From contig NC_057719.1 in the NCBI RefSeq assembly GCF_004010195.1, positions 13,381,904 to 13,445,903 of the forward strand: a stretch of DNA of 64,000 nucleotides. The letters run 5' to 3'. Below, piece after piece: positions 3,266 through 58,118 of this stretch. Both the position numbers and the translations under genes were made by a program. The notes under the pieces were generated by a model, which was given only the letters and a program-made list of their open reading frames with translations, searched no databases and was not told the origin of the DNA. Position 1 is the first letter of the stretch. The number at the start of each line of letters is the position of its first letter. The stretch comes from Chiloscyllium plagiosum (taxonomy: Eukaryota).

Positions 3266-3465
3266 GGTGCTGGTGTTGGACTGGGGTGGACAAAGTTAAA
3301 AATCACACAACATCAGGTTATAGCCCCCAACAGGTTTATTTGGAAGGAAAAGCTTTCAGAGTGCTGCTCCTTTGTCACGTAGCCAGTGCTGGAATAACTC
3401 CCTGATGAAGGAGCAGCGCTACGAAAGACAGTCCTTCCAACTAAACCTGTTGGACTATAACCTGG
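3266..3465. mobile_element. Fold-back Penelope-derived short element (family 2) with hammerhead-like core
   Basis: Imperfect inverted arms ~3314-3376 and ~3403-3464; CTGATGA-AGGAGC-AGC-GCTAC-GAAA starting at 3402. Confidence 0.7.
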
Positions 3466-5439: not shown

Positions 5440-6172
5440 TTTTTTATTATTCATTCACAAGATGAAGGTTTCACGGGCTGGGCAGCATTTATTGTCCATC
5501 CCTAATTGCCCAGAGGGCAGTTAAGAGTCAAATCACATTGCTGTGGGTCTGGAGTCACGTGTAGGCCAGACCAGGCAAGCTTGGGAGAAAGTATGGACTG
5601 CAGATTAGAATTGAAAAGTGCGGTGCTGAAAAAGCACAGCTGGTCAGGCAGCATCCGTGGATGAAGGTGGGGGGGTGATGGTGATAGGTGGGAAGGGAGG
5701 GTAGAGCAGATAGGTGGGAATGAAGATGGACAGGTAGGACAGGTCACGAGGGCGGTGCCGAGTTGGAGGTTTGGATCAGGGATAAGGTGGGGGAAGGGGA
5801 GATGAGGAATCTGGTGAAATCAACATGGATTCCGTGTGAATGGAGGGTCCCCAAGTGGAAGATGAGGGATGAGGCATTCTTCCTCCAGTTGGCGGGTGGC
5901 TAGGATTTAGTGGTGCAGGAGGCCCAGGACTTGCACGTCCTTGGTGGAGTTGACTGGGTAAGGATGGCAGCTTCCTTCCTTAAAGGACATTAGTGAATCA
6001 GATAGGTTTTTCCAACAATTGACAACAGATTCATGCTTAACATGAAACTCTTAATTCCAGATATTTACTGAACTCAAACTCCACCATCTGGCGTGGCAGG
6101 ATTTGAACCTGTGAACATTATCTGGGTCTCTAGTTTAACAGTCCAGCAATAATACCACTAGGCCATTGCCTC
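5440..6172 (-). mobile_element. tRNA-derived SINE with L2-like tail (family B), interrupted by a Penelope fragment
   Basis: cagcatttattgtccatccctaattgcccagagggcagttaagagtca...ccactaggccattgcc; reverse complement of the intact copy at 31862-32175. Confidence 0.8.
5583..5951 (-). mobile_element. Penelope-like element 3' fragment
   Basis: Begins ggagaaagtatggactgcag...aaagcacagctggtcaggcagcatcc; the G-rich body matches the reverse complement of the C-rich 3' region at 9710-9990. Confidence 0.7.
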
Positions 6173-8687: not shown

Positions 8688-9987
8688 TCTCTCCCACGAG
8701 GAGGTTGAACAGTTCATCCACTTTACTAACACCTTCCAGCCTGACCTCAAATTGGGCACTTGCATGGGCCCCAGCTGTGCCTGCCTCTTCGTAGGATATG
8801 TGGAAAAGTCCATCTTCCGCAGCTACACTGGCACCAACCCCCACCTTTTTCTCCGCTACATCGATGACTGTATCGGCGCTGCCTCGTGCTCCCACGTGGA
8901 GGTTGAACAGTTCATCCACTCTACTAACACCTTCCACCCCGACCTCAAATTTACTGGACCATCTCAGACTCCTCCCTCTCCTTCCTAGACCTCTCCATTT
9001 CTATCTCGGGGGACCGAATCAACACGGACATTTACTATAAACCGACCGACTCCCACAGCTACCTAGACTACACCNNNNNNNNNNNNNNNNNNNNNNNNNN
9101 NNNNNNNNNNNNNNNNNNNNNNNNNNNNNNNNNNNNNNNNNNNNNNNNNNNNNNNNNNNNNNNNNNNNNNNNNNNNNNNNNNNNNNNNNNNNNNNNNNNN
9201 NNNNNNNNNNNNNNNNNNNNNNNNNNNNNNNNNNNNNNNNNNNNNNNNNNNNNNNNNNNNNNNNNNNNNNNNNNNNNNNNNNNNNNNNNNNNNNNNNNNN
9301 NNNNNNNNNNNNNNNNNNNNNNNNNNNNNNNNNNNNNNNNNNNNNNNNNNNNNNNNNNNNNNNNNNNNNNNNNNNNNNNNNNNNNNNNNNNNNNNNNNNN
9401 NNNNNNNNNNNNNNNNNNNNNNNNNNNNNNNNNNNNNNNNNNNNNNNNNNNNNNNNNNNNNNNNNNNNNNNNNNNNNNNNNNNNNNNNNNNNNNNNNNNN
9501 NNNNNNNNNNNNNNNNNNNNNNNNNNNNNNNNNNNNNNNNNNNNNNNNNNNNNNNNNNNNNNNNNNNNNNNNNNNNNNNNNNNNNNNNNNNNNNNNNNNN
9601 NNNNNNNNNNNNNNNNNNNNNNNNNNNNNNNNNNNNNNNNNNNNNNNNNNNNNNNNNNNNNNNNNNNNNNNNNNNNNNNNNNNNNNNNNNNNNNNNNNNN
9701 NNNNNNNNACCTTGTCTCAGTCCCAACCCTCGAACTCAGCACCACCTTCCTAAGCTGCAATCTTCTTCCTCCCGCCCCCCCCCCATTCTGGCCTATCACC
9801 TTAACCTCCTTCCACCTATCGCATTTCCAACGCCCCTCCCCCAAGTCCCTCCTCCCTACCTTTTATCTTAGCCTGCTTGGCACACTTTCCTCATTTCTGA
9901 AGAAGGGCTCATGCCCGAAATGTCGATTCTCCTGCTCCTTGGATGCTGCCTGACCTGCTGCGCTTTTCCAGCAACACATTTTCAGCC
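8688..9987 (+). mobile_element. Penelope-like retroelement, 5'-truncated: RT fragment, gap, 3' end with hammerhead core
   Basis: GTCMGPSCACLFVGYVE...LFLRYIDDCIG...FLDL...DIYYKPTDSHSYL is Penelope-type RT. CTGAAGA-AGGGC-TCAT-GCCC-GAAA-T-GTC at 9897-9924. ctatcttgaga is duplicated at 8675-8685 and 9988-9998. Confidence 0.88.
9075..9708. other. Assembly gap (N run)
   Basis: Run of n. Confidence 1.
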
Positions 9988-10910: not shown

Positions 10911-11085
10911 GTGGCTGTACTTAAAGAGAATTGGATAGATGGATAGATTGGAGAAATGGGCAGAATGAATGGTTTTAAAAAGGTCTAGTACAGGCATGAT
11001 AGGCCAAATGGCCACCTTCTGGGCTGTAAGACTTGATTATTGTAGGAGTCAAAGCTGAATAGGCCCCGAACAATCTTTGTCATGG

Positions 11086-11247
11086 AGGTGAAAGTGAGGA
11101 CTGAGGATGCTGGAGATTGGAGTTGAGAGTGTGGTGCTGGAAAAGCACAGTAGGTCAGGCAGCATCCGAGGAGCAGGAGAATCAACGTTTTGGGGATAAG
11201 CTCTTCATCAGGAATTCCTGATGAAGGGCTTTTGCCTGAAATGTCAA
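11086..11247. mobile_element. Fold-back Penelope-derived short element (family 1)
   Basis: Perfect 24-bp palindrome cttcatcaggaattcctgatgaag at 11203-11226 joins two oppositely oriented hammerhead-like cores. Confidence 0.75.
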
Positions 11248-11519
11248 ATCTTTCTCACATGCCAATTATTCATGTGAGTGCCTGAATGCCAGGTGTTGGA
11301 TGGCTGTTCAAATCCACTGCAGAGGGATCAGCCCAATTCTGCTTTCAGTGATAACATTAACAGGAGGAGAGGCCCGATATTAATTAAGAGCAAGAATGCT
11401 GTTGGAAAGACTTCTCCCCAACTCAGAAACAATGAATGCCATTTGTTGCCTGTCTAACCCTCTGCTGTCCAGACTATCTGGCACCAATTCAACTCAGTTA
11501 CAATGAAATATGATGTAAT

Positions 11520-12237: not shown

Positions 12238-12332
12238 GTCAAAGAGTGTGCTGCTGGAAAACCACAGCCAGTCAGGCAGCATCTGAGGAGCAGGACAGTT
12301 AACATTTTGAGCATAAGCTCTTCTTCAGGAAT
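12238..12332 (-). mobile_element. Penelope-derived terminus (family 1)
   Basis: gctggaaaaccacagccagtcaggcagcatctgaggagcagg...gctcttcttcagga. Confidence 0.7.
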
Positions 12333-12551
12333 ACAACAGGCCGATTAACCATGCCATAGTCCCTCATCCGTCCTAGAAGTTGCTTTTTTAAAGATCTTGT
12401 GCAGTGAGGTTTCAACTTGCTTCTTCTGGATTATTAATTACCACGGCGACAGAGGAACCTCAAATATCTCACAAACACAGCCACCTTTTTTTTTAAAGGA
12501 AGAGCTTACAGCTGTGAATGTAATTTTAATGACTGCCTGGAGAGAGGGATG

Positions 12552-13049: not shown

Positions 13050-13248
13050 CTATCATTTATTCGTCCGCCCATCCTAAGCATATATACTCATCTTTTCCTC
13101 GCTACACTCAGTTCTGAAGAAGGATCACTGGATCCTAAATGTTAACTCTGCTTTTTCTCCCCAGATGCTGCCAGGTCTGTTGAGTTTTCCCAGCAATTTC
13201 TGTTTCTGTTTCTGATTTCCAGCATCGGCAGGGTTTTGGGTTTTTATT
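13050..13248 (+). mobile_element. Penelope-derived 3' end (family 3) with mutated hammerhead core
   Basis: GTT-CTGAAGA-AGGATC-ACTG-GATCC-TAAA-TG-TT-AAC at 13111-13146, then cagatgctgccaggtctgttgagttttcccagca. Confidence 0.65.
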
Positions 13249-15730: not shown

Positions 15731-16262
15731 AAGTTAAATTGAAAGGAATGGGGAACCTAGGGGGACTAAAATACTCTTTGAAAGGTCAGCTGAATCCATC
15801 AGCAGCTTCCGCCAAGCTGAACAATTGGGGAACTATGAAGAGACACACACAAACATTGAAGAGTAAAGTTCGCATGAGTTCCAAAATATTATCCTTGTGG
15901 TGCCGAGTTTCTGGTGGCTGGCCCAGCAAATTGCATATCAGAATCGATTTCCAGTCTATATCCCCCTGTTATTTATGATGCATTTGGTGTGAAATGAGGA
16001 GAATGGTTTCACACATTCGCCCCATTGAAAGAAATCTCCCAACAGTCCAACTCCGCTGTTTTCTTGCCATCAGTCCTGTTGATCCCTTCCCGAGTGAATA
16101 TCCAACGCTCTTTTGAAAGTTACCATTGAACACAATCTTATTAAGCTCAAACTTCACCATCTTGTCTGGAGGGACTTGAACCCGTGACCCCAGAATTTTA
16201 GCAGGAGGGGTCTAGATTGCTAGCCCAGTGATATTACCACTACCTACTCACTTATTGCAACT

Positions 16263-16550
16263 AGGCAAAAGTGAGGACTGCAGATGCTGGAAACCAGATT
16301 TTAGATCAGAGTGGTGCTGGAAAAGCACAGCAGGTCAGGCAGCATCCGAGGAGCAGGGAAATCTGCATTTCAGGCAAAAGCCCTTCATCAGGAATAGAGG
16401 CAGGAAGCCTCCAGAGTGGAGAGACTTCCCCCCACCCCCATTTATCTCTCCACCCTGGAGGCTCCCTGCCTCTTTGCCCGAAATGTCGATTTTCCTGCTC
16501 CTCGGATGCTGACTGACCTGCTGTGCTTTTCCAGTACCACTCTGATCTAA
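16263..16550. mobile_element. Fold-back Penelope-derived short element (family 1) with 14-bp TSD
   Basis: Inverted arms ttagatcagagtggtgctggaaaagcacagcagg... / ...cctgctgtgcttttccagtaccactctgatctaa; actcacttattgca at 16246-16259 and 16551-16564. Confidence 0.85.
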
Positions 16551-20100: not shown

Positions 20101-20784
20101 AGGGCACGCTTAAACAGGCGAACAGAGTAACCCTGCTCCAACGTTCCTCTCTTTGTATCCTCAAGAATTAAGCACACGTCAACCCTGAATTTCCTCAGCA
20201 TACACAGATCCCAAATTTCCTTGTGAATTATAGAAATTCTGAATTTCCTCATGGATCATTGACAGTGATCCTGAATGCCCTCAGAGATGATACAAACGGT
20301 GAATCTTGAATAACACTGTACCTCCCTATGAAGGCAAATCTGTGATGTTGCCAGTGAGCCAATCTCAAGCTGAAGAAAGTTCCCATTCATTTCAGAATCA
20401 GCCATTTTCTATTTTGGGACAGTTTGGTCTTTTCTAAGTTAGATGTCTCAGATGCCAAGAGAATGAATTTGCACAGTAACTTGCAAATTGCGAGTACATA
20501 TGTGGTTGTGGAATATCCCAACGGTCCAGCAATAAAGGGAATGGAAATATTACCAGGTAAAATAACAGGGAGAGACCCAATATCAACATCTCCGGTCCCA
20601 ATCTCCATAAATATCTCTCACGAGCAGCGAGACATCGCACTGAAGACGTGAAAATGCTCACATTCAGAGATTCCTGCTACTGCCTCCTATCTCTACACAT
20701 CATCTGTGAGCTGGGGTCTAGAGTTTCCTCCATCCACTCAACACTGACCATGCCTTCCTTGAAACAGACTTCTATAGTGTGCTG

Positions 20785-20870
20785 TCAAAAAGTGTGGTGC
20801 TGGAAAAGCACAGCTGGTCAGGCAGCATCCGAGGAGCAGGAGAGTCGACGTTTCAAGCATAAGCTCTTCA
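20785..20870 (-). mobile_element. Penelope-derived terminus (family 1)
   Basis: gtgtggtgctggaaaagcacagctggtcaggcagcatccgaggagcaggagagtcgacgtttc. Confidence 0.7.
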
Positions 20871-21975: not shown

Positions 21976-22394
21976 ACTACACCTCTTATTCAGGAATATG
22001 CCGTTTCATTCATTTGATTGACAAAATTCCTGAAATATATTCAGTTCCTGTCCTCAGATTAGTTACTCTCCTGTGTATCAGGCATTGAGGGACATGACAC
22101 AGAGCAGTTTTTAACACAGAGATACAGTCATAAATTTGGTGCAAGTGGGAATTTCAATTTGAAAATTATTTTAACACCAAGAATTTGACCTGTAAATTCG
22201 AAACTGAAAGGGACTCCTGCAGAGTTGACTGGCAATCAGTAGAAATCAGTTGTTTAAATTCATATTTGCTTGCATTTGATGAAACTGATTTAGGAGCTCT
22301 AACCTACTAGGAAGGCAATGGTGTTGACAAAAGTAAGCTGTGTGACCTATTTCACAAACTGTGAATTGGTGAATGTGTGAATGGGTCAGTCCAG

Positions 22395-25300
22395 AACAGA
22401 ATGCAATGATAATGAAAGAGTAAACCAGTAACAGAGTGCAGTGAGACTGAATGAGTGAATCAGTAACAGTCTGCAGTGAGAGTGAATCAGTGAATCAGTG
22501 AAAGTGTGCAGTGAGTGTGAATGAGTGAATCAGTAACAGTGTGCAGTGAGTGTGAATGAGTAAATGAGTGAGACCGTGCAGAGAGTGAAAGAGTAAATCA
22601 GTAACAGAGCACAGTGACTGTCAATGAGCAAATCAGTAACAGAGTGCAGTGAGAGTGAAAGAGTGAATCAGTAGCAGAGCGAAGTGATTATGAATGTGCA
22701 AATCAGTAACAGATGCTGTGGATGTGAATGAGTGAATCGGTAAAAGTGCGCAGTGATTGTAAATGAGTAAATCAGTAACAGTGTGCTGTGGATGTGAATG
22801 AGTATATAATTAATACAGTGCAGTGATTGTGATTGATTAAATGAGTAACAGTGTGCTGTGGATGTGAATGAGTAAATCAGTAACAATGTGCAGTGACTGT
22901 TAATGAGTAAATCAGTAACAGAGTGCAGTGATTGTGAATGAGTAAATCAGTAACAGTGTGCAGTGGCTGTGAATGAGTGAATCAGTAACAGAGTGCAGTG
23001 ATTGTTAATGAGTGAATCAGTAACAGAGTGCAGTGAGCACGAATGAGTGAATCAGTAACAGAGAGCAGAGATTGTGAATGAGTAAATCAGTAACAGTGTG
23101 CAGCAGCGATTGTGAATGAGTGAATCAGTAACAGAGTGCTGTGAGTGTGAATGAGTGAATCAGTAACAGTGTGCAGTGAGTGTGAATGAAAGAATCAGTA
23201 AAAGAGTGCAGTGATTGTGAATGAGTGAATCAGTAACAGAGTGCTGTGAGTGTGAATGAGTGAATCAGTAACAGTGTGCAGTGAGTGTGAATGACTAAAT
23301 GAGTGAGACCGTGCAGTGAGAGTGAGAGTAAATCAGTAACAGAGCACAGTGACTGCGAGTGAGCAAATCAGCAACACAGTCCAGTGATTGTGAATGAGTG
23401 AATCAGTAGCACAGTGCAATGATTGTGAATGAATAAATCAGTAACAGAACAGTGATGGAATGAATGAATCATTAACTGATGCTGTGATTGTGACAGAGTG
23501 AATCAGTAACAGAGTGCAGCGATTGTGAATGAGTGAATCAGTAACAGAGTGCTGTGAGTGTGAATGAGTGAATCAGTAACAGTGTGCAGTGAGTGTGAAT
23601 GAAAGAATCAGTAAAAGAGTGCAGTGATTGTGAATGAGTGAATCATTAACAGTGTGCAGTGAGAGTGAATGAGTGAATCAGTAACAGCGTGCAGTGAGCG
23701 CGAATGAGTGAATCAGTAACAGAGAGCAGAGATTGTGAATGAGTAAATCAGTAACAGTGTGCAGTGGCTGTGAATGAGTATATAAGTAATACAGTGCAGT
23801 GATTGTGAATGAGTACATCAGTAACAATGTGCTGTGGATGTGAATGAGTATATAAGTAATACAGTGCAGTGATTGTGAATGAGTAAATCAGTAACAGTGT
23901 ACTGTGGAGGTGAATGAGTAAATCAGTAACAATGTGCAGTGACTGTGAATGGGCACATCAGTAACAATCACTGCACTCTGTTATAGACTTAGTCATTCAT
24001 TCTCACTGCACCCTGATAATGATTCACTAATCGACAATCACTGCACTCTGTTACTGATTCACTCATTCACAATCACTGCACTCTGTTACTGTTTCACTCA
24101 TTCACTCTCTCTGCACACTGTTAATGATTCACTCATTCACAATCGCTGCACTCTGTTACTGATTCACTTATTCACTTTTACTGCACACTGTTAATGATTA
24201 ACTCATTCACAATCACAGCACTCTGTTACTGATTCACTGATTCACAATAGCTGCACTCTGTTACTGATTCACTCATTCACAATCGCTGCACACTGTTACT
24301 GATTCACTCATTCACTCTCACTGCACACTGTTACTGATTCACTCAGTCACACTCACTGCACATTGTTACTGATTCACTCAGTCACACTCACTGCACACTG
24401 TTACTGATTCACTCATTCACAATCACTGCACTCTGTTACTGATACACTCAGTCACAATCACTGCACTCTGTTACTGATTCACTCATTCACGCTCACTGCA
24501 CTCTGTTAATGATTCACTCATTCGCAATCACTGCACACTGTTACTGATTCACTCAGTCACAATCACTGCACTCTGTTACTGATTCACTCATTCACGCTCA
24601 CTGCACTCTGTTAATGATTCACTCATTCACAATCACTGCACTGTGTTACTGATTCACTGATTCACACTCACTGCCCACTGTTACTGATTCACTCATTCAC
24701 TCTCACTGCACTCTGTTACTGATTCACTCATTCACAGTCACTGCAAATGTTACTGATTTTCTCATTCAGTGTACAGTGAGAGTGAATGAGTACAAGTGTG
24801 GCGAGATTGTAAATGAGTGAATCATTAAAACAGTGCAGTGAGAGTGAATGAGTAAATAAGTAACAGAGTGCTTTGATGGTGAATGAGTAAATCGGTAACT
24901 GTGTGCTCTGAGAGTGAATGCGTGAGTGAGTACCAGTGTAGTGAGAGTGAATGAGTGAATCAGTAAAAGGATACAGTGATTGAAAATGAGTAAATCAGTA
25001 ACAGCATGTAGTGATTGTGAGTGAATAAATCAGTACCAAACTGCAGTGATTGTCCATGAGAAAAGCAGTAACAGAGTTAAGTGAGAATGAATGACTAAAT
25101 CAGGAACAGAGTGCAGTCATTGTGAAGAAGTAAACCAGGAACAGTGAGCAGTGAGAGTGAATCAGTGAATCAGTAACAGTGTGCAGTTATTGTGAATAAC
25201 TGAATCAGTAACAGTGTGCAGTGAGTGTGAATGAGTGAATCAGTAACAGAGTCCAGTGAGTGTGAATGAGTGAATCAGTAACAGAGTCCAGTGAGTGCGA

Positions 25301-27890
25301 ATGAGTGAATCAGTGAAAGTGTGAATGAGTGAATCAGTAACAGTGTGCAGTGAGTGTGAATGAGCGAATCAGTGAAAGTGTGAATGAGTGAATCAGTGAC
25401 ANNNNNNNNNNNNNNNNNNNNNNNNNNNNNNNNNNNNNNNNNNNNNNNNNNNNNNNNNNNNNNNNNNNNNNNNNNNNNNNNNNNNNNNNNNNNNNNNNNN
25501 NNNNNNNNNNNNNNNNNNNNNNNNNNNNNNNNNNNNNNNNNNNNNNNNNNNNNNNNNNNNNNNNNNNNNNNNNNNNNNNNNNNNNNNNNNNNNNNNNNNN
25601 NNNNNNNNNNNNNNNNNNNNNNNNNNNNNNNNNNNNNNNNNNNNNNNNNNNNNNNNNNNNNNNNNNNNNNNNNNNNNNNNNNNNNNNNNNNNNNNNNNNN
25701 NNNNNNNNNNNNNNNNNNNNNNNNNNNNNNNNNNNNNNNNNNNNNNNNNNNNNNNNNNNNNNNNNNNNNNNNNNNNNNNNNNNNNNNNNNNNNNNNNNNN
25801 NNNNNNNNNNNNNNNNNNNNNNNNNNNNNNNNNNNNNNNNNNNNNNNNNNNNNNNNNNNNNNNNNNNNNNNNNNNNNNNNNNNNNNNNNNNNNNNNNNNN
25901 NTGCAGTGATTGTGAATGAACGAATCAGTAACAGCGTGCAGTGAGAATGAATGCGTGAATCAGTAACAGAGTGCAGTGATTGTGAATGAGTGAATCAGTA
26001 ACAGATTGCAGTGATTGCGACAGAGTGAATCAGTAACAGAGTGCAGTGATTGCGAATGAGTGAATCGGTAACAGTGTGCAGCGACTGTGAATGAGTGATT
26101 CAGTAACAGTGTGCAGTGATTGTAAATGAGTGAATCAGTAATAGAGTGCAGTGATTGTGAATGTGTGAATCAGTAACAGAGTGCAGTCATTGTAAATGAG
26201 TGAATCATTAACAGTGTGCAGCGATTGTGAATGAGTGAATCAGTAACAATGTGCAGTGATTGTGAAGTAGTGAATCAGTACCAGAGTGCAGCGATTGTGA
26301 ATGAGTGAATCAGCAACAGTGTGCAGTGATTGTGAATGAGAGAATCAGTATCAGAGTGCAGTAATTGTGAATGTGTGAATCAGTAACAATGTGCAGCGAT
26401 TGTGAATGAGTGAATCAGTAACAGAGTGCAGCGATTGTGAATGTGTGAATCAGTAACAGAGTGCAGTCATTGTAACTGAGTGAATCATTAACAGTGTGCA
26501 GCGATTGTGAATGACTGATTCAGTAACAGAGTGCAGTGATTGTGAATGAGTAAATCAGTAACAGTGTGCAGTGATTGTGAATGAGTGAATCAGTAACAGA
26601 GTGCAGTAATTGTGAATGTGTGAATCAGTAACAACGTGCAGCGATTGTGAATGAGTGAATCAGTAACAGAGTGCAGTGATTGTGAATGAGTAAATCAGTA
26701 ACAGTGTGCAGTGAGAGTGAATGAGTGAATCAGTAACAGAGTGCAGTGAGAATGAATGAGTGAATCAGTAACAGAATGCAGTGATTGTGAATGAGTGAAT
26801 CAATAACAGAGTGCTGTGATTGTGAATGAGTAAATCAGTAACAGTGTGCAGTGATTGTGAATGAGTGAATCAGTAACAGAATGCAGTGATTGTGAATGTG
26901 TGAATCAGTAACAATGTGCAGCGATTGTGAATGAGTGAATCAGTAACAGAGTGCAGTGATTGTGAATTAGTGAATCAGTAATAGTGTGATGTGATTGTGA
27001 ACGGGTTAATCAGTAACAGAGTGCAGTGATTGTGAATGAGTGAATCAGTGACAGAGTGCAGCGATTGTGAATGAGAGAATCAGTATCAGAGTGCAGTAAT
27101 TGTGAATGTGTGAATCAGTAACAGTGTGCAGCGATTGTGAATGAGTGAATCAGTAACAGAGTGCAGTGATTGTGAATGAGTAAATCAGTAACAGTGTGCA
27201 GTGATTGTGAATGAGTGGATCAGTAACAGAGTGCAGTGAGTGTGAATGAGTGAATCAGTAACAGAATGCAGTGATTGTGAATGAGTGAATCAGTGACAGA
27301 GTGCAGTGATTGTGAATGAGTGAATCAGTGACAGAGTGCAGTGATTGTGAATGAGTGAATCAGTAACAGAGTGCAGCGATAGTGAATGAGTGAATCAGTA
27401 ACAGAATGCAATGTGAGTGAATGAGTGAATCAGAAACAGAGTGCAGCGATTTTGAATGAGTGAATCAGTAACAGTGTGCAGTGATTGTGAATGACTGAAT
27501 AAGTAACAGTGTGTAGTGAGTGTGTGTGTGTGAATCAGCAACCGAGTGCAGTGTTTTTGAATGACTAAATCAGTAACTGACTTCGGGGATAGTGATTAAG
27601 TAATTCAGTACCAGAGCGCAGTGAGACTGAATCAGTTTATCAGTAACAGTGTGCAGTGATTGTGAATGAGTAACTCATTAACAGCATTGTGATAGCTAAT
27701 GAGTAAATCAGTAACATAGTTCTGTGTGATCGTGAATGAGTAAATCAGTAACAGAGTCCAGTGACTGTGAATGAGTGAATCAGCGACAAAATGCAGTAAT
27801 TGTAGATGTGCAATTCAGAACCAGAGTGCTATGATTCTAAATGTGTACATTAGTAACAGAGCTGAGTGACTGTTAATGAGTACATTAGTT
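22395..27890. repeat. 35-bp satellite array with an inverted block and a gap
   Basis: Unit gagtgaatcagtaacagagtgcagtgattgtgaat; reverse-complement units at ~23965-24768; degenerate edges. Confidence 0.95.
25402..25901. other. Assembly gap (500 N, probably an unsized placeholder)
   Basis: Round-number N run inside the satellite. Confidence 0.95.
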
Positions 27891-28418: not shown

Positions 28419-28641
28419 GATTAGTGGTGCTGAAAGAGCACAGCAGTTCAGGCAGCATCCGAGGAGCAGTAAAATCGACGTTTCGGGCAAAAGCCCTGCT
28501 GTGCTCTTCCAGCAACTGATGAAGGGCTTTTGCCCGAAACGTCGATTTTACTGCTCCTTCGATGCTGCCTGAACTGCTGTGCTCTTCCAGCACCACTAAT
28601 CCAGAATCTGGTTTCCAGCATCTGGAGTCATTGTTTTTACT
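28419..28641. mobile_element. Fold-back Penelope-derived short element with 16-bp TSD and intact hammerhead core
   Basis: ttagagaggtgagctg at 28403-28418 and 28642-28657; CTGATGA-AGGGC-TTTT-GCCC-GAAA-C-GTC at 28516-28543. Confidence 0.88.
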
Positions 28642-30691: not shown

Positions 30692-30825
30692 CAAGTTAAA
30701 AATGTCACAACACCAGGTTACAGTCTAACAGGTTTATGTGGAAGCACTAGCTTTCGGAGCACTGCTCCTTCATCAGCTACCTGTTGATTTTTAACTTTAT
30801 CCAGCCCAACACCAGCTCCTCCATA
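30692..30825. mobile_element. Penelope-derived short element (family 2) with partial fold-back and TSD
   Basis: Minus-strand CTGATGA-AGGAGC-AGT-GCTCC-GAAA-GC-TA at ~30748-30776; ctatg(t/c)ttctac at 30680 and 30826. Confidence 0.75.
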
Positions 30826-30959: not shown

Positions 30960-31024
30960 AGTATAGTGGTTAGTATCCCCGCCTGTCACGCGGGATACCA
31001 GGGTTCAATTCCCCGCCCGGGGAG
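30960..31024 (+). pseudogene. 5'-truncated tRNA-Asp(GTC) pseudogene
   Basis: agtatagtggttagtatccccgcctGTCacgcgggataccagggttcaattccccgcccggggag matches vertebrate tRNA-Asp, but the 5' acceptor strand (tcctcgtt) is absent and the T arm carries substitutions. Confidence 0.85.
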
Positions 31025-36065: not shown

Positions 36066-39000
36066 TTTTAAAATGTATTTTTGTTGAAAAATTGATTTTT
36101 TAATCTTACAACAAATGCAAAACAATACAAAGAAAGAGCCAAAATAAAATTGTAAAAAACCCAAACCGCCCTCAGGTACAAATGTATAAATATGTATAAA
36201 AAATATATATTAAAAAAAAACTCAACTAATTACTTAACTAAATGAACAACAAACCAATAAATAATAATAATACAACTCAGCTAAACAAAACACTAGCTCT
36301 CGAATATCAAGGGCATTAATTTTCACATATTCATGCATTCACAGTTTCCCTCTCTGGATATTCTGGATATTGGACTCGTAAAGCATAATCGTTATGGTTA
36401 TATAAAAGCCCTTATTAATGTGGCAAACAAATCTGTGTCCGTATCTTCCCATGCCTCTGAGAAGACCTCAATGCCTAGCTCTCTCTCCCACACCCTGCAG
36501 AGTCAATCAAACTCATCTGAGGGGCCGCACCCCCCCAATTGATGATATAAAGTGCTGACAGAAAATGTACTCTTAGCACTGAGCACCCTCCTCTCTATGT
36601 TGGATTTGTAGGGATCAGTCAAAAGTATAGTCTTTTATTGAATAAAATCCATAAATTGAAAAAAAAACGAAAGAGGTCCCTGCTAGATAGCTCATACTTC
36701 CATGCTAACTAACCAAAAGACATCATTGTGCTTCCCTCAAATAAATCCTCCATGCAAGATACACCCCTAGCTGCCCAATGTTTGAATCCTGAATCCTGAA
36801 TCCCCGGTTGAAAACCCGGCAGACCCATTATGTGACCACTTAAATGGAAATTGAGATTCACCCTCAAACCTAGCACCTCCATAAGACAACCCATAAATAT
36901 AGCCTCTGATTTTGCAAAATTAATCTTGTACCCCAAAAAGGTGCCAAACGAGCTGATGCATTGTATCAGGCGAGACACTGAAACGGCTGGATTTAACAAT
37001 GAGGACATTGTCACGTACAACAAAACCTTCTGTAATTTTGATCCCACTTCTGGAGCCAATGAATTAGGATCCCTCTGGATGGCCTCCGCCAACGGTTCAA
37101 TCACCAATGTAAAAAACAATGGTGAAAGGGGACAGCCCTGCCGACTGCCCCTAAAAAGTATTAAAATGGCTGGGTCATACCCCATTGGTGATGACTGCAG
37201 CAAGAGGGTCACTATAGAGAACCTTTACCCATCTTATAAAGGCTTCACCCAAGGCAGACTGCTCCAGAATATAAAAAAGGTATGGCCCCTCAACTCGGTC
37301 AAATGCCTTCTCTGCATCTGCAGAAAACACCAATCCCTATATTGACTGTTGTTGACACGCTTGAATTACATTAAGCAGCTTCCTAACGTTATTGGAGGAT
37401 CTGCAGCCTCTATGAAGCCTGTCTGGTCCTCTTTAACAATAGAAGGGACACAGTCTCCAGTCTTAATGCAAGAATCTTAGAGAGGATTTTAAAAGTCCAC
37501 ATTTAAGAGTGAAGTGGGCCTGTAAGAAGCACAGTCCTCCAAAACCATCCTTTTTTTTAAGAATGAGTGAAATATTGGCCTCTCTTAGAGATGGTGATCC
37601 AGACTGTTCGAGTCATTGAACATGTTGAGCATCGGGCCTGACAGCATGTTTATAAATTCCTTATAGAATTCACTGGGAAGTCCATCAGGACCGGGCGCCT
37701 TTCCACTTTGAAGCTGCTTCACAGCCTCCGGCACCTCTCGCTCTGATAAGGGGAGCATTGAGAAAGGACTGTTGTTCAGGGGTCACACCCAGGAGCTTCA
37801 GATCCTTGAAAAAAGACTCCATCTTGGCCCGCCCCTCCTCACAACCCTCAGATTGGTGCAATTCAGAGTAAAATCTCTGGAATGCTACTTTAATCTTTTT
37901 TGGAATTGCATGTTAGTTTCCCAGACCCTTCCCTAATTGACGTAGTGGCTTGAGTGGTGAGTACACTCGGTACCTGCCTGGTTTGTCACCATGCTCATAT
38001 AACCTTTGCTTTGCAAAAGTAAGCTCCTTCTTTGCTGTCTGCGTGAGCATGGAATTCAATGCAGACCGCAGCACCATAATCCTCTGTAGCTTGGCCAACG
38101 AGGGTCTGTCAAAGTAAACCTCCTCAGCTGCTTTCAACCATGCTTCGAGGAGACGTTGCAGCTCGCCCTTCTGCCACTTCCTACTGGCAGAGTAGGAAAT
38201 AACTAACGCCTGGCATAGGCTTTGGCAGTTTCCCAAAGGATGGATGGGCGACCAACTGAGCCTGAATTAATGTCTATGAACTCCCTAAATTCCTTAGAGA
38301 AGTACTCCACAAAGTTATCATCCCTAAAGATAAAGGGATCCATTCGCCAGTGCCTCGGGCCCGCTATAGGTAAACTGGAGCGTGATCGGAGATGGTACTA
38401 TTACCAATCGTACAAGATGCCACTAAGTCCAGGTTGCCATGGGGGTCAAACAAAAATCAATCCTATGTGACATCTGTGTGAATTGGAAAAATACTGTAAA
38501 ATCCCTGCCTGTAGGGTGGAGACCCCTGCAGATGTCCACCAACCCTATCTCCACACATAGATCCACTACAGAAAATAATCAGCCTGGAGTCCAGTTACTA
38601 GTGGTGTGCCACAAGGATCTGTTTTGGGACCATTGCCGTTTGTCATTTTTATAAATGACTTAAACGCAGGCATAGGTGGATGGATTAGTAAATTTGCAGG
38701 CGACACTAAAGTCGGTGGAGTAGTGGACAGTTTGGAAGAATGTTACAGGTTGCAGGGGTCTTGGATAAACTGCAGAATTGGGGTGAGAGGTGGCAAATGG
38801 AGTTCAGTGCAGCTAAATGTGAGGTGATGCACTTTGGGAAGAATAACAGGAATGGGTCAATGGAAAGATTCTTGGTAGTGTGGATGTGCAGAAGGATCTT
38901 GGAGTCCATGTGCATAGATCTCTGAAAGTTGCCACCCAGGTGGATAGTGCTGTTAAGAATGCATATGGTGTGTTAGGTTCCATTGGTAGAGGGATTGAGT

Positions 39001-52669: not shown

Positions 52670-53460
52670 ATTTTCATTCATGGGAGTGTGGGCTAGGCCA
52701 ATGTTTATTGCCCAGAGGGCAGTTAAGAGTCAACCACATTGCTGTAGGTCTGGAGTCACATGTAGGCCAGATGAGGTAAGCATGGCCGATTCCATCCGTA
52801 TAGGGCATTGGTTAGTTTTTCTAACAATCTACTACTTCCAGATTTTTACTGAGTTCAAATTACACCATCTGCTGTGGCAGGATTTGAACTCAGGACCCTA
52901 GAACATTACCTGGGTCTCTGGAATAACAATCTAGCAATTATACCATTAAGCTATTGCCTCCCCAGAGTTAAAAATCACACAACACCAGGTTATAGTCCAA
53001 CAGGTTTAACTGAAAGCACTAGCTTTCGGAGCGCCGCCCTTTCATCAGCCCTCCCCAGAGGGTAGTTAAGAGTCAACTACATCACTGTAAGTCTGCAGTC
53101 ACATGTAGGGGCTTTTGTCCGAAGCTTCGAATTTCCTGCTCCTCGGATGCTGCCTCTCCTGCTGTGCTTTTCCAGCATCACTCTAATCTAGACTCTGATC
53201 TCCAGTATCTGCAGTCCTCACTTTCGCCTAGTCACATGTAGGCCCCATCAGGTAAGGGCAGCAGTTGCTTTCCCTAAGGGACATTAGTGAACTAGATATA
53301 TATCCCCCACTCACAATATCAGACTTGCATTCTTAATTCCAGACTATTTTTACTGATTTCAAATTCCACCATGGTAGGGTTTGAAGGTGGGTCCCCAGGA
53401 CATTACCTGAGTCTCTGGATGATTAATCTAATGATAATATCACAAGGCCCTTGCCTCCCC
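52670..53460 (-). mobile_element. Two family-B SINEs with two Penelope-derived inserts (52968-53049 and 53110-53229)
   Basis: TSDs cctccccagag (52957-52967 / 53050-53060) and agtcacatgtagg (53097-53109 / 53230-53242). Confidence 0.8.
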
Positions 53461-54960: not shown

Positions 54961-55198
54961 CTTATATTTTACTTCTTTATAAATGTTTCGGTGGCTGTTC
55001 ACTGATTTCTAAAGCACCCCAATCCTCAGGCTTACTTCTGTGCCTTGCAACCTTACAAATCTCTTATAATTTAAACTTATCCTCGACCTTCTTCATAAGC
55101 CATGTATTTCACTTGTTTTTTTTGTTGAAATGTATTTCTTATTAAGCACATTGAGTCATTTAAATATTTCCCACTTCATGTTTACTGCAATAAATTTT

Positions 55199-55430
55199 AG
55201 CTGAAAATGTGTTGCTGGAAAAGCGCAGCAGGTCAGGCAGCATCCAAGGAACAGGAGAATCGACGTTTCGGGCATAAGCCCTTCTTCAGGAATCAGCCCA
55301 ACATTCCTGAAGAAGGGCTTATGCCCGAAACATCGATTCTCCTGTTCCTTGGATGCTGCCTGACCTGCTGCGCTTTTCCAGCAACACATTTGCAGCTCTG
55401 ATCTCCAGTATCTGCAGACCTCACTTTCTC
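55199..55430. mobile_element. Young fold-back Penelope-derived element with 16-bp TSD
   Basis: ~95-bp near-perfect inverted arms (55199-55293 / 55303-55397), 9-nt loop cagcccaac; ctgcaataaa(t/c)tttag at 55185-55200 and 55431-55446. Confidence 0.9.
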
Positions 55431-56282
55431 CTGCAATAAACTTTAGTCTACTTACCCAATCAGCCTTAGCCAGCTCTCAACTTGTATTGATGTAATTGAC
55501 TTTGTTTGGAACTTGGTTGTGTTTGGAATATGCCATTTTCAAAGTTAAGTGTGGAATTCAATTCTGTTATGATCACTATTTTCCCCGTGGATCTTTTACA
55601 ACGATTATTGCATGGTAGTAGGCCTACAATAACTTTATCTTCAGTTGGTTCCATAATACATTGCTGCAGCAAACTACTCTAAAAGCATGCTACAATTACA
55701 TCTTTCATATCACCTTTGCCAATCAGTCAAGAAATCAGAATATGGAAAGAGAGTTGATGTCTTGTTGTAATCGGTGTTTCTCTGGTCAAAACCCTGTATG
55801 TCCAAGCTCAGTGTCTCAAGCAGGGAATGGGCCACCCTGGCTTTGTGTGGAGCAATTTATTCACTGGCTTTTACAGCTCACATCTAACACAAGCAGTGAA
55901 ACGTACCCAAAGAAGATAATGCCATAGAAGCACTAGATTTGCCCTTGTCATGTTCCTTATTTCATAACAAGTTTATGTCAGTAAGATTTGAAAGGTGCTG
56001 CTTTGTATGCTATCAACAGTTCTGATATGCACTGACAGACAAGATTAAGAGATTACTTTGCCCTTGAAGCCTTTTTGGAAAACAAGGACATTTATATGGT
56101 AATTCTTTTTTATCTTTCCCGATCATAAGCAAAAACACAACAGCGTCTTTTGATGGCTGTTGAGTCTGCTTTTCATTCCACTGACGGTACCCTGACATTT
56201 GACTCAATCCATTTGCAAGACTGCTTCCCCAGCAATTTTGTGCCAGGAAATGAATTAAGAATCCCCTTAAAAGTCAGAGAGT

Positions 56283-57622: not shown

Positions 57623-57855
57623 CTTGATCTATGTAAGAAAATATGCTTAGTTAACAATACAGACAAATCACATGATTTTACAACTGAAGTGATTAGCATA
57701 GAAGTTCTTTTCAATGTACAATGTAGTTTGAGCAGGCAAATGGAAAGGTCCCCACAACCTGCCTGGAGAAGTCAAGACAAATCATGGGAGATTCCGACTG
57801 GTGACTGCTCCGAAAGGGGAAAGCTCACCTGAGAAGGCAAATATCGAGGGACTTT

Positions 57856-58071
57856 AGGCAAAAGTGAGGACTACAGATGCTGGAAACCAGAGTCTAGATT
57901 AGAGTGGTGCTGGAAAAGCACAGCAAGTCAGGCAGCATCCGAGGAGCAGGAAAATTGATGTTTCGGGCAGGAGCACTTCATCAGGAATGAAGGGCTTTTG
58001 CCCGAAACGTCGATTTTCCTGCTCTTCAGATGCTGCCTGACCTGCTATGCTATTCCAGCACCACTCTAATC
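57856..58071. mobile_element. Fold-back Penelope-derived element with 14-bp TSD
   Basis: Arms agattagagtggtgctggaa... / ...ttccagcaccactctaatct; tatcgag(g/a)gacttt at 57842-57855 and 58072-58085. Confidence 0.88.
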
Positions 58072-58118
58072 TATCGAGAGACTTTGTCAGGAATGTCTGG
58101 ATAGAGCGTTGACAATGT

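Follow-up and report, generated by a model that had tools for sequence, protein, structure and literature searches.

The typical insertion unit of a Penelope-like element (PLE) consists of a pseudo-LTR (pLTR), an adjacent inverted and 5'-truncated copy, a tail of 30–40 bp and a target-site duplication (TSD), as set out in the available text of PMC3846280 and PMC8557442; the same unit is given in the available part of a curation guide (PMC8969392). Minimal hammerhead ribozymes (min-HHRs) of metazoan PLEs are treated in the accessible portion of PMC4209133, where truncated elements carry dual min-HHRs on opposite strands, 100–700 bp apart, and where monomers are reported to be inactive and dimers weak. 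In work on PAc, a Poseidon element of Anolis, the element's protein nicked both strands of the target and extended them, two internal starts of reverse transcription bounded the tail, uncut RNA was the dominant template, and a shortened 5' end of the template gave shorter products (PMC11167929).

We analysed a stretch of 64,000 nucleotides from Chiloscyllium plagiosum (the window; positions are counted from its first letter), and in it an insertion lying within 55185–55446. All four features of the EN+ (endonuclease-bearing) PLE unit were found there, namely a PLE end, an inverted truncated copy, a one-sided tail and a TSD. As in the units described in the available text of PMC3846280 and PMC8557442, the pLTR pieces are inverted head to head, a 35-bp tail is present on one arm and the end is shared with copies bearing a reverse transcriptase (RT); the insertion differs in that its parts are only 93–128 bp long, without an ORF body, and in that its TSD is 16 bp, compared with 8–10 bp in the rotifer examples. 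The hammerhead motifs agree with the min-HHRs in the accessible portion of PMC4209133 in the CUGANGA stretch, an extra nucleotide before G10.1-C11.1, a palindromic 15.2-16.2, the lack of loop 3 and a weak helix I. Helix II, however, has 4 bp here and 7–8 bp in the Schistosoma families, and unlike the pairs described there the two cores sit within one perfect hairpin, separated by only about 45 bp. PAc also has two discrete 3' ends that bound the tail, keeps an uncut hammerhead in its insertions and possibly has its ORF start inside the pLTR; it belongs to another clade, whereas the relatives of our insertion carry a Neptune-type linker, and the main text of PMC11167929 is silent on the formation of inverted junctions. 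Non-LTR retrozymes, as far as they are described in the available text of PMC7229834 and bioRxiv 10.64898/2026.07.22.740005, are likewise short, non-coding and PLE-related and have a type I hammerhead, but they form head-to-tail tandems with same-strand ribozymes and circles, whereas the present element is a single head-to-head insert.

Structure and affiliation of the insertion

The insert proper spans 55201–55430 and is bracketed by direct repeats matching at 15 of 16 positions (Table 1). In a control of 300 random boxes of equal search size, the best match was 11, seen once, and 12 was never reached. The initial annotation had described an insertion of about 230 bp with inverted arms of about 95 bp, and this description holds: the insert is 230 bp long and the arms are 93 bp each, or 95 bp if the bases shared with the left repeat are included, differing only at 55332/55264 and 55392/55204. 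The reading frame from the ATG at 55352, a candidate ORF start, is open through the tail. The predicted fold of the insert is very stable (-192 kcal/mol, z = -27 against 200 shuffles). The 9-bp junction sequence occurs once within the window. The contigs that enter the insert at this site share just 22 and 20 letters with it, fewer than the 31 that the tool requires. Four public sequencing runs gave roughly 6,900 joints and 8,200 loose ends, a set dominated by repeat-derived contigs, and the best-ranked ones listed included no joint of the empty site.

The nearest relative of the arms in the window is the end of the RT-bearing copy at 8688–9987, to which they are 96% and 92% identical, the other arms being 75–86% identical. 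When 62 columns were compared outside CpG, there were 2 differences from this copy and at least 6 from the others. The RT fragment of this copy shows 87% identity with a protein of Chiloscyllium punctatum and 80% with proteins of Rhincodon and Stegostoma. The whale-shark homologue P0029 carries RT and GIY-YIG domains with a CX4CxxC linker; in homologue P0034 the linker is also present, and the sequence reads past the endonuclease into a translated hammerhead region. In the 8688–9987 copy the GIY-YIG part falls in an assembly gap, and the linker was read in these two homologues only. A CX2-5CxxC linker between RT and endonuclease is given as the mark of Neptune/Nematis in the available text of PMC8557442, and the parent element may be of Neptune type, judging by the linker motif of its relatives.

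Because the RT-bearing copy ends in the same arm and its homologues carry RT and GIY-YIG domains, the arm can be taken as the pLTR end of a shark endonuclease-bearing PLE, and the Penelope derivation claimed in the initial annotation is thereby upheld. We consider it highly probable (about 0.87) that the element arose by truncated, inverted PLE insertion and that its hammerhead motifs are passengers. It was likely dead on arrival, a heavily 5'-truncated EN+ PLE insertion made of two head-to-head pLTR ends. The TSD, the one-sided tail and the copy-specific junctions bear out one of the two options originally put forward, that of a stereotyped product of truncated, inverted insertion.

Table 1. 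Parts of the insertion and related PLE copies in the window (coordinates of the window)
Feature	Position	Strand	Remarks
Left TSD, 16 bp	55185-55200	+	15/16 match to 55431-55446
Short tail-less inverted arm (PLE pLTR piece)	55201-55293	-	begins 4 nt before hammerhead core
Junction filler (spacer), 9 bp	55294-55302	no strand	found in no other window copy
Long arm	55303-55395	+	mirrors short arm; 91/93 identical
PLE tail, 35 bp	55396-55430	+	on one arm only, without mirror
Right TSD	55431-55446	+	pairs with 55185-55200
Minimal type I hammerhead core	55289-55262	-	intact ACGU helix III and GUC; ends CGTC
Second hammerhead core	55307-55334	+	ends CATC; G-to-A at 55332
Longer 5'-truncated PLE insertion	8688-9987	+	12/13-bp TSD; RT fragment (YIDD), assembly gap, ORF end, same arm
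Fold-back	11083-11251	-	AT overlap between the arms; short arm of about 38 bp
Fold-back	16260-16550	-	arms longer by about 35-40 nt on the upstream side; most of core absent from short arm; 14-bp TSD
Fold-back	28419-28641	+	19-nt filler copied from inside element (28496 = 28574); 17/18-bp TSD
Fold-back	57855-58073	-	arms overlap at AT; short arm begins inside core; 13/14-bp TSD
Single tail-less arm	12238-12333	-	begins at -4/-5
Single tail-less arm	20784-20870	-	begins inside core; without TSD
Single tailed arm	53109-53229	+	begins in helix II; 13-bp TSD

Hammerhead cores and their predicted folding

Both arms contain the core CTGAAGA-A-GGGC-TTAT-GCCC-GAAA, one on each strand. The minus-strand copy ends GAAACGTC and the plus-strand copy GAAACATC; the G-to-A change in the latter, of the CpG-decay type, breaks the palindrome of helix III. 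GUC is retained in the minus-strand core only, as had been noted from the sequence, and the characterization of the motif as a minimal hammerhead with a tiny palindromic stem III is also correct. The minus-strand copy shows every mark of the PLE min-HHR, with the core, the additional nucleotide after A9, G10.1-C11.1, the palindromic 15.2-16.2 and NUH, and hammerhead numbering would place its cut between 55262 and 55261.

The hammerhead scan suggested in the initial annotation gave a split result. No Rfam hammerhead model matched the element at E≤1, whereas a structure-aware descriptor requiring helix II detected 8 motifs in the window, compared with at most one per shuffle (none in 92 and one in 8 of 100 shuffles). 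Seven of these motifs are PLE copies and the one at 55029 resembles a chance match. Covariation in stems I and II, proposed at the same time as a check, did not exceed that of shuffles within the family: among 9 copies, 87.5% of cells were paired with one compensatory pair, and 125–446 of 500 shuffles were as high. A metagenome scan for the hammerhead core gave no matches. We also considered a miRNA hairpin and rejected it, the mir-680 matches (37 bits against a gathering threshold of 104) merely reflecting the hairpin.

At equilibrium, helix II is predicted to pair with a probability of about 0.9 in a single arm. For the fold-back the value is 0.0 on both strands, and the predicted penalty for the ribozyme fold within the fold-back is about 40 kcal/mol. 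Nascent prefixes of the fold-back likewise gave a predicted helix II pairing of 0.0, because the antisense arm is always transcribed first. Since each strand has one sense core only, a dimer in cis is impossible; for the isolated minus-strand core, folding predicts intermolecular pairing at the palindrome. The hairpin is thus predicted to suppress the ribozyme fold in read-through RNA, and the ribozyme would belong to the cycle of the parent element and be silent in this stub.

Related copies, arm ends and junctions

A BLAST search of the window with the insert revealed 14 arms in 9 insertions of the same family, in addition to a copy at 5597–5960 and a distant relative at 13164. TSDs with at least 12 matches were found in 6 of the 9 insertions (chance 0/300), and their length across the fold-back family is 11–18 bp. 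The architecture described for the insertion at 55185 had been said to recur at other positions. Four more fold-backs indeed exist (at 11083, 16260, 28419 and 57855), but a whole core on both strands is present in only one of the five, the insertion at 55185 itself. The copy at 5597–5960, on the minus strand, is a longer PLE end that includes the endonuclease C-terminus and a tail but has its hammerhead region deleted. At the 5' end of the RT-bearing PLE copy (8688–8955), a 63-bp copy (8691–8753) of the inner stretch 8889–8951 forms a template-switch-like junction.

Of the 5 tailed arms, 2 keep the frame from the candidate ORF start open and 3 carry a stop in it; one predicted protein begins there. 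The arms at 16260–16395, 53109–53229 and 57855–57988 represent a variant with an in-frame stop where the tailed arms at 55303 and 11083 stay open. This variant, which also has a different upstream sequence, is possibly a non-coding PLE subfamily or uses another ORF start.

We also noticed a second hammerhead family (3296–3464, 30695–30778 and 52966–53049), which differs in helix II, with 5 bp, and in the helix III palindrome, AGCT. Its copy at 3296 is also a fold-back, its arms likewise begin at the 5' edge of the core, and an 11-bp TSD is present at 52957/53050. A third, decayed hammerhead-like PLE end with another helix II lies at 13108–13231 and is distantly similar to the main family.

The 3' ends of the arms fall into two classes, 66–78 and 104–112 nt past G12, as measured on 12 of the 14 arms (the 38-bp arm at 11214 and the arm at 20784 that lacks a TSD were left out). 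All four fold-backs with two long arms have one arm of each class; among single-arm insertions, three use the short 3' end and one the tailed end. At the other side, counted from C3 of the core, six arms begin at -4/-5 and five at +1 to +9, while two begin about 35–40 nt upstream (the 16260 copy) and one far upstream. Thus 11 of 14 arms begin within -5 to +9, six of them at an initiator-like A, and none begins at the predicted cut site (after +28). These starts point to a strong hot spot and not to random truncation.

Comparison of inversion points had been proposed as a way to tell the two options apart, and among the copies in the window all five junctions differ, which argues for formation anew at each insertion. 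The junction at 55294 has a filler of 9 nt, that of the 28419 copy a filler of 19 nt from inside the element, and the 16260 copy is a long variant; in the two AT-overlap junctions, one has both arms starting from -4 and the other has one arm starting from +4. Public contigs and reads beyond 55293 were heterogeneous, with an agreement of 0.39 for 173 contigs, 0.38 for 193 contigs and 0.62 for 171 reads. Their consensus starts as the upstream sequence of the RT-bearing copy and not as the 9-bp spacer.

Origin of the fold-backs

The clustered arm ends may be accounted for as follows. The GIY-YIG endonuclease would nick both target strands about 16 bp apart, giving rise to the TSD, and each 3' end would prime reverse transcription of uncleaved PLE RNA at one of two internal starts about 35 nt apart. 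The outer start would yield the tailed arm and the inner start, on the other strand, the tail-less arm; both cDNA copies would stop after about 95–130 nt, at or just inside the 5' edge of the hammerhead, and their ends would be joined by microhomology or with filler. The twin-priming step is modelled on in vitro work with a different (Poseidon) element. The A at -4 lies within TCATTC/CTATTCC, which we take to fit the initiator consensus YYANWYY. Since this A is initiator-like and the transcription start of Penelope falls in its pLTR, the arms may be run-off copies reaching the 5' end of the RNA. This position of the start is given in the available text of PMC8557442. That the stubs are fossils in which both nicked strands primed at two starts and ran off at the A before the core is a tentative proposal, to which we give somewhat less than even odds. 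Stalling at the ribozyme structure is an alternative reason for the arm stops, and a fixed short template RNA could also yield clustered 5' ends.

Self-priming, in which a hairpin folds back on the antisense template or the nascent cDNA of the same PLE, would leave the origin of the insertion unchanged and differ only in how the inversion arose. It has been proposed for palindromic head-to-head PLE junctions (PMC3846280, in the text available), and both the perfect AT-centred overlaps at two junctions in the window and the private change common to both arms at 55185 are in keeping with it. Gene conversion or self-priming could explain the high identity between these arms together with that change. 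Self-priming alone, however, does not account for a second arm that stops exactly at a second fixed 3' end used by single arms too, and the junctions with filler (9 nt and 19 nt) resemble end joining; we regard it as the less likely of the two, but a fair rival for the inversion step. We rejected a miniature inverted-repeat DNA transposon (MITE) or fold-back family, given the five different junctions, the asymmetric tail and TSDs of 11–18 bp.

The other option of the initial annotation was a non-autonomous retrozyme-like family. Its fold-backs would be transcribed and then re-inserted whole by PLE enzymes. This option could draw on the similar size of the fold-backs (170–290 bp) and their tightly clustered inversion points; moreover, sequence other than their own can be mobilised in trans by PLE ends (PMC3846280) and retrozymes have been proposed as PLE derivatives (bioRxiv 10.64898/2026.07.22.740005), according to the available text of these sources. 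Comparison of the copies does not support it. The five junctions differ and the fold-backs stem from different sequence variants, each arm pairing with its own partner or with the RT-bearing copy; four of the five lack a whole core on one strand, and the same ends occur in single arms and in long RT-bearing copies. Retrozymes are recognized by at least two head-to-tail units with same-strand hammerheads, and at 55185 we found no tandem direct repeats and one core per strand. Because an inverted truncated copy with tail and TSD and opposite-strand min-HHRs are published PLE features, we do not assign the insertion to a retrozyme family, an origin that we consider very unlikely. A self-propagating hairpin retrozyme would, if real, be of greater significance, but the evidence speaks against one. 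A chimera of assembly or library is hardly credible. The junctions have no bridging of at least 31 letters in public contigs, but the insert has a TSD, its one-sided tail ends at a boundary shared across the family, its arms differ at two positions, and the four sister fold-backs have TSDs of their own.

It had further been claimed that the host pre-mRNA would contain candidate self-cleaving motifs in double-stranded hairpins. The stability of the predicted fold and the occurrence of related copies in a polyA RNA run fit a hairpin that acts there either by self-cleavage or as dsRNA, through editing or small RNAs. The claim is not supported: each transcript would have one sense core, which is predicted to be sequestered by the preceding antisense arm at the cost given above. 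In addition, metazoan min-HHR monomers were uncleaved in vitro (PMC4209133, accessible portion), the PAc hammerhead required its protein (PMC11167929), and the cores show CpG decay and no sign of constraint. No host gene is established in the window: 63 non-repeat frames of at least 75 aa gave one sub-cutoff Pfam match, a search that short exons would escape. We consider such a role very unlikely indeed. That match, to KRAP_IP3R_bind at 36297–36539 (E 9e-5), yielded no homologues when searched and is probably due to chance. The RNA data were a 2% sample from a single polyA single-cell run, in which depth was zero over the unique flank bins at 55492–56239, too little to judge expression. In the same sample no read-end pile-up was listed, which cannot speak to cleavage, and A>G/T>C changes numbered 37/36 against 42/43 for G>A/C>T, which cannot speak to editing. 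Elsewhere in the window, arrays of a 35-bp satellite at 22376–27881 switch orientation several times (at about 23960 and 24775), creating large inverted repeats, and a tRNA-like fragment at 30960–31015 (Rfam tRNA, 32.5 bits) is possibly a SINE head or a tRNA pseudogene.

The interpretation as truncated PLE stubs is based on 5 fold-backs and 14 arms in one window, and a high-copy fold-back subfamily may be present elsewhere in the genome. The origin of tandem and inverted PLE structures is called undefined in the available text of PMC8557442; the listings of open-access papers that we searched contained none that deals specifically with fold-back PLE stubs of sharks, with transcription starting at the edge of the hammerhead or with twin priming in PLEs. 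The insertion at 55185 is a clean example of the published PLE insertion pattern and useful for repeat annotation, and it cautions that most hammerhead motif matches in sharks represent dead PLE ends. That the arms start in a cluster just before the ribozyme, and not at its cut, offers a cheap genome-wide handle on the origin of PLE tandem and inverted structures. If the run-off interpretation is true, the very many copies in sharks would locate, to the base, both where PLE transcription starts and where the inversion takes place.
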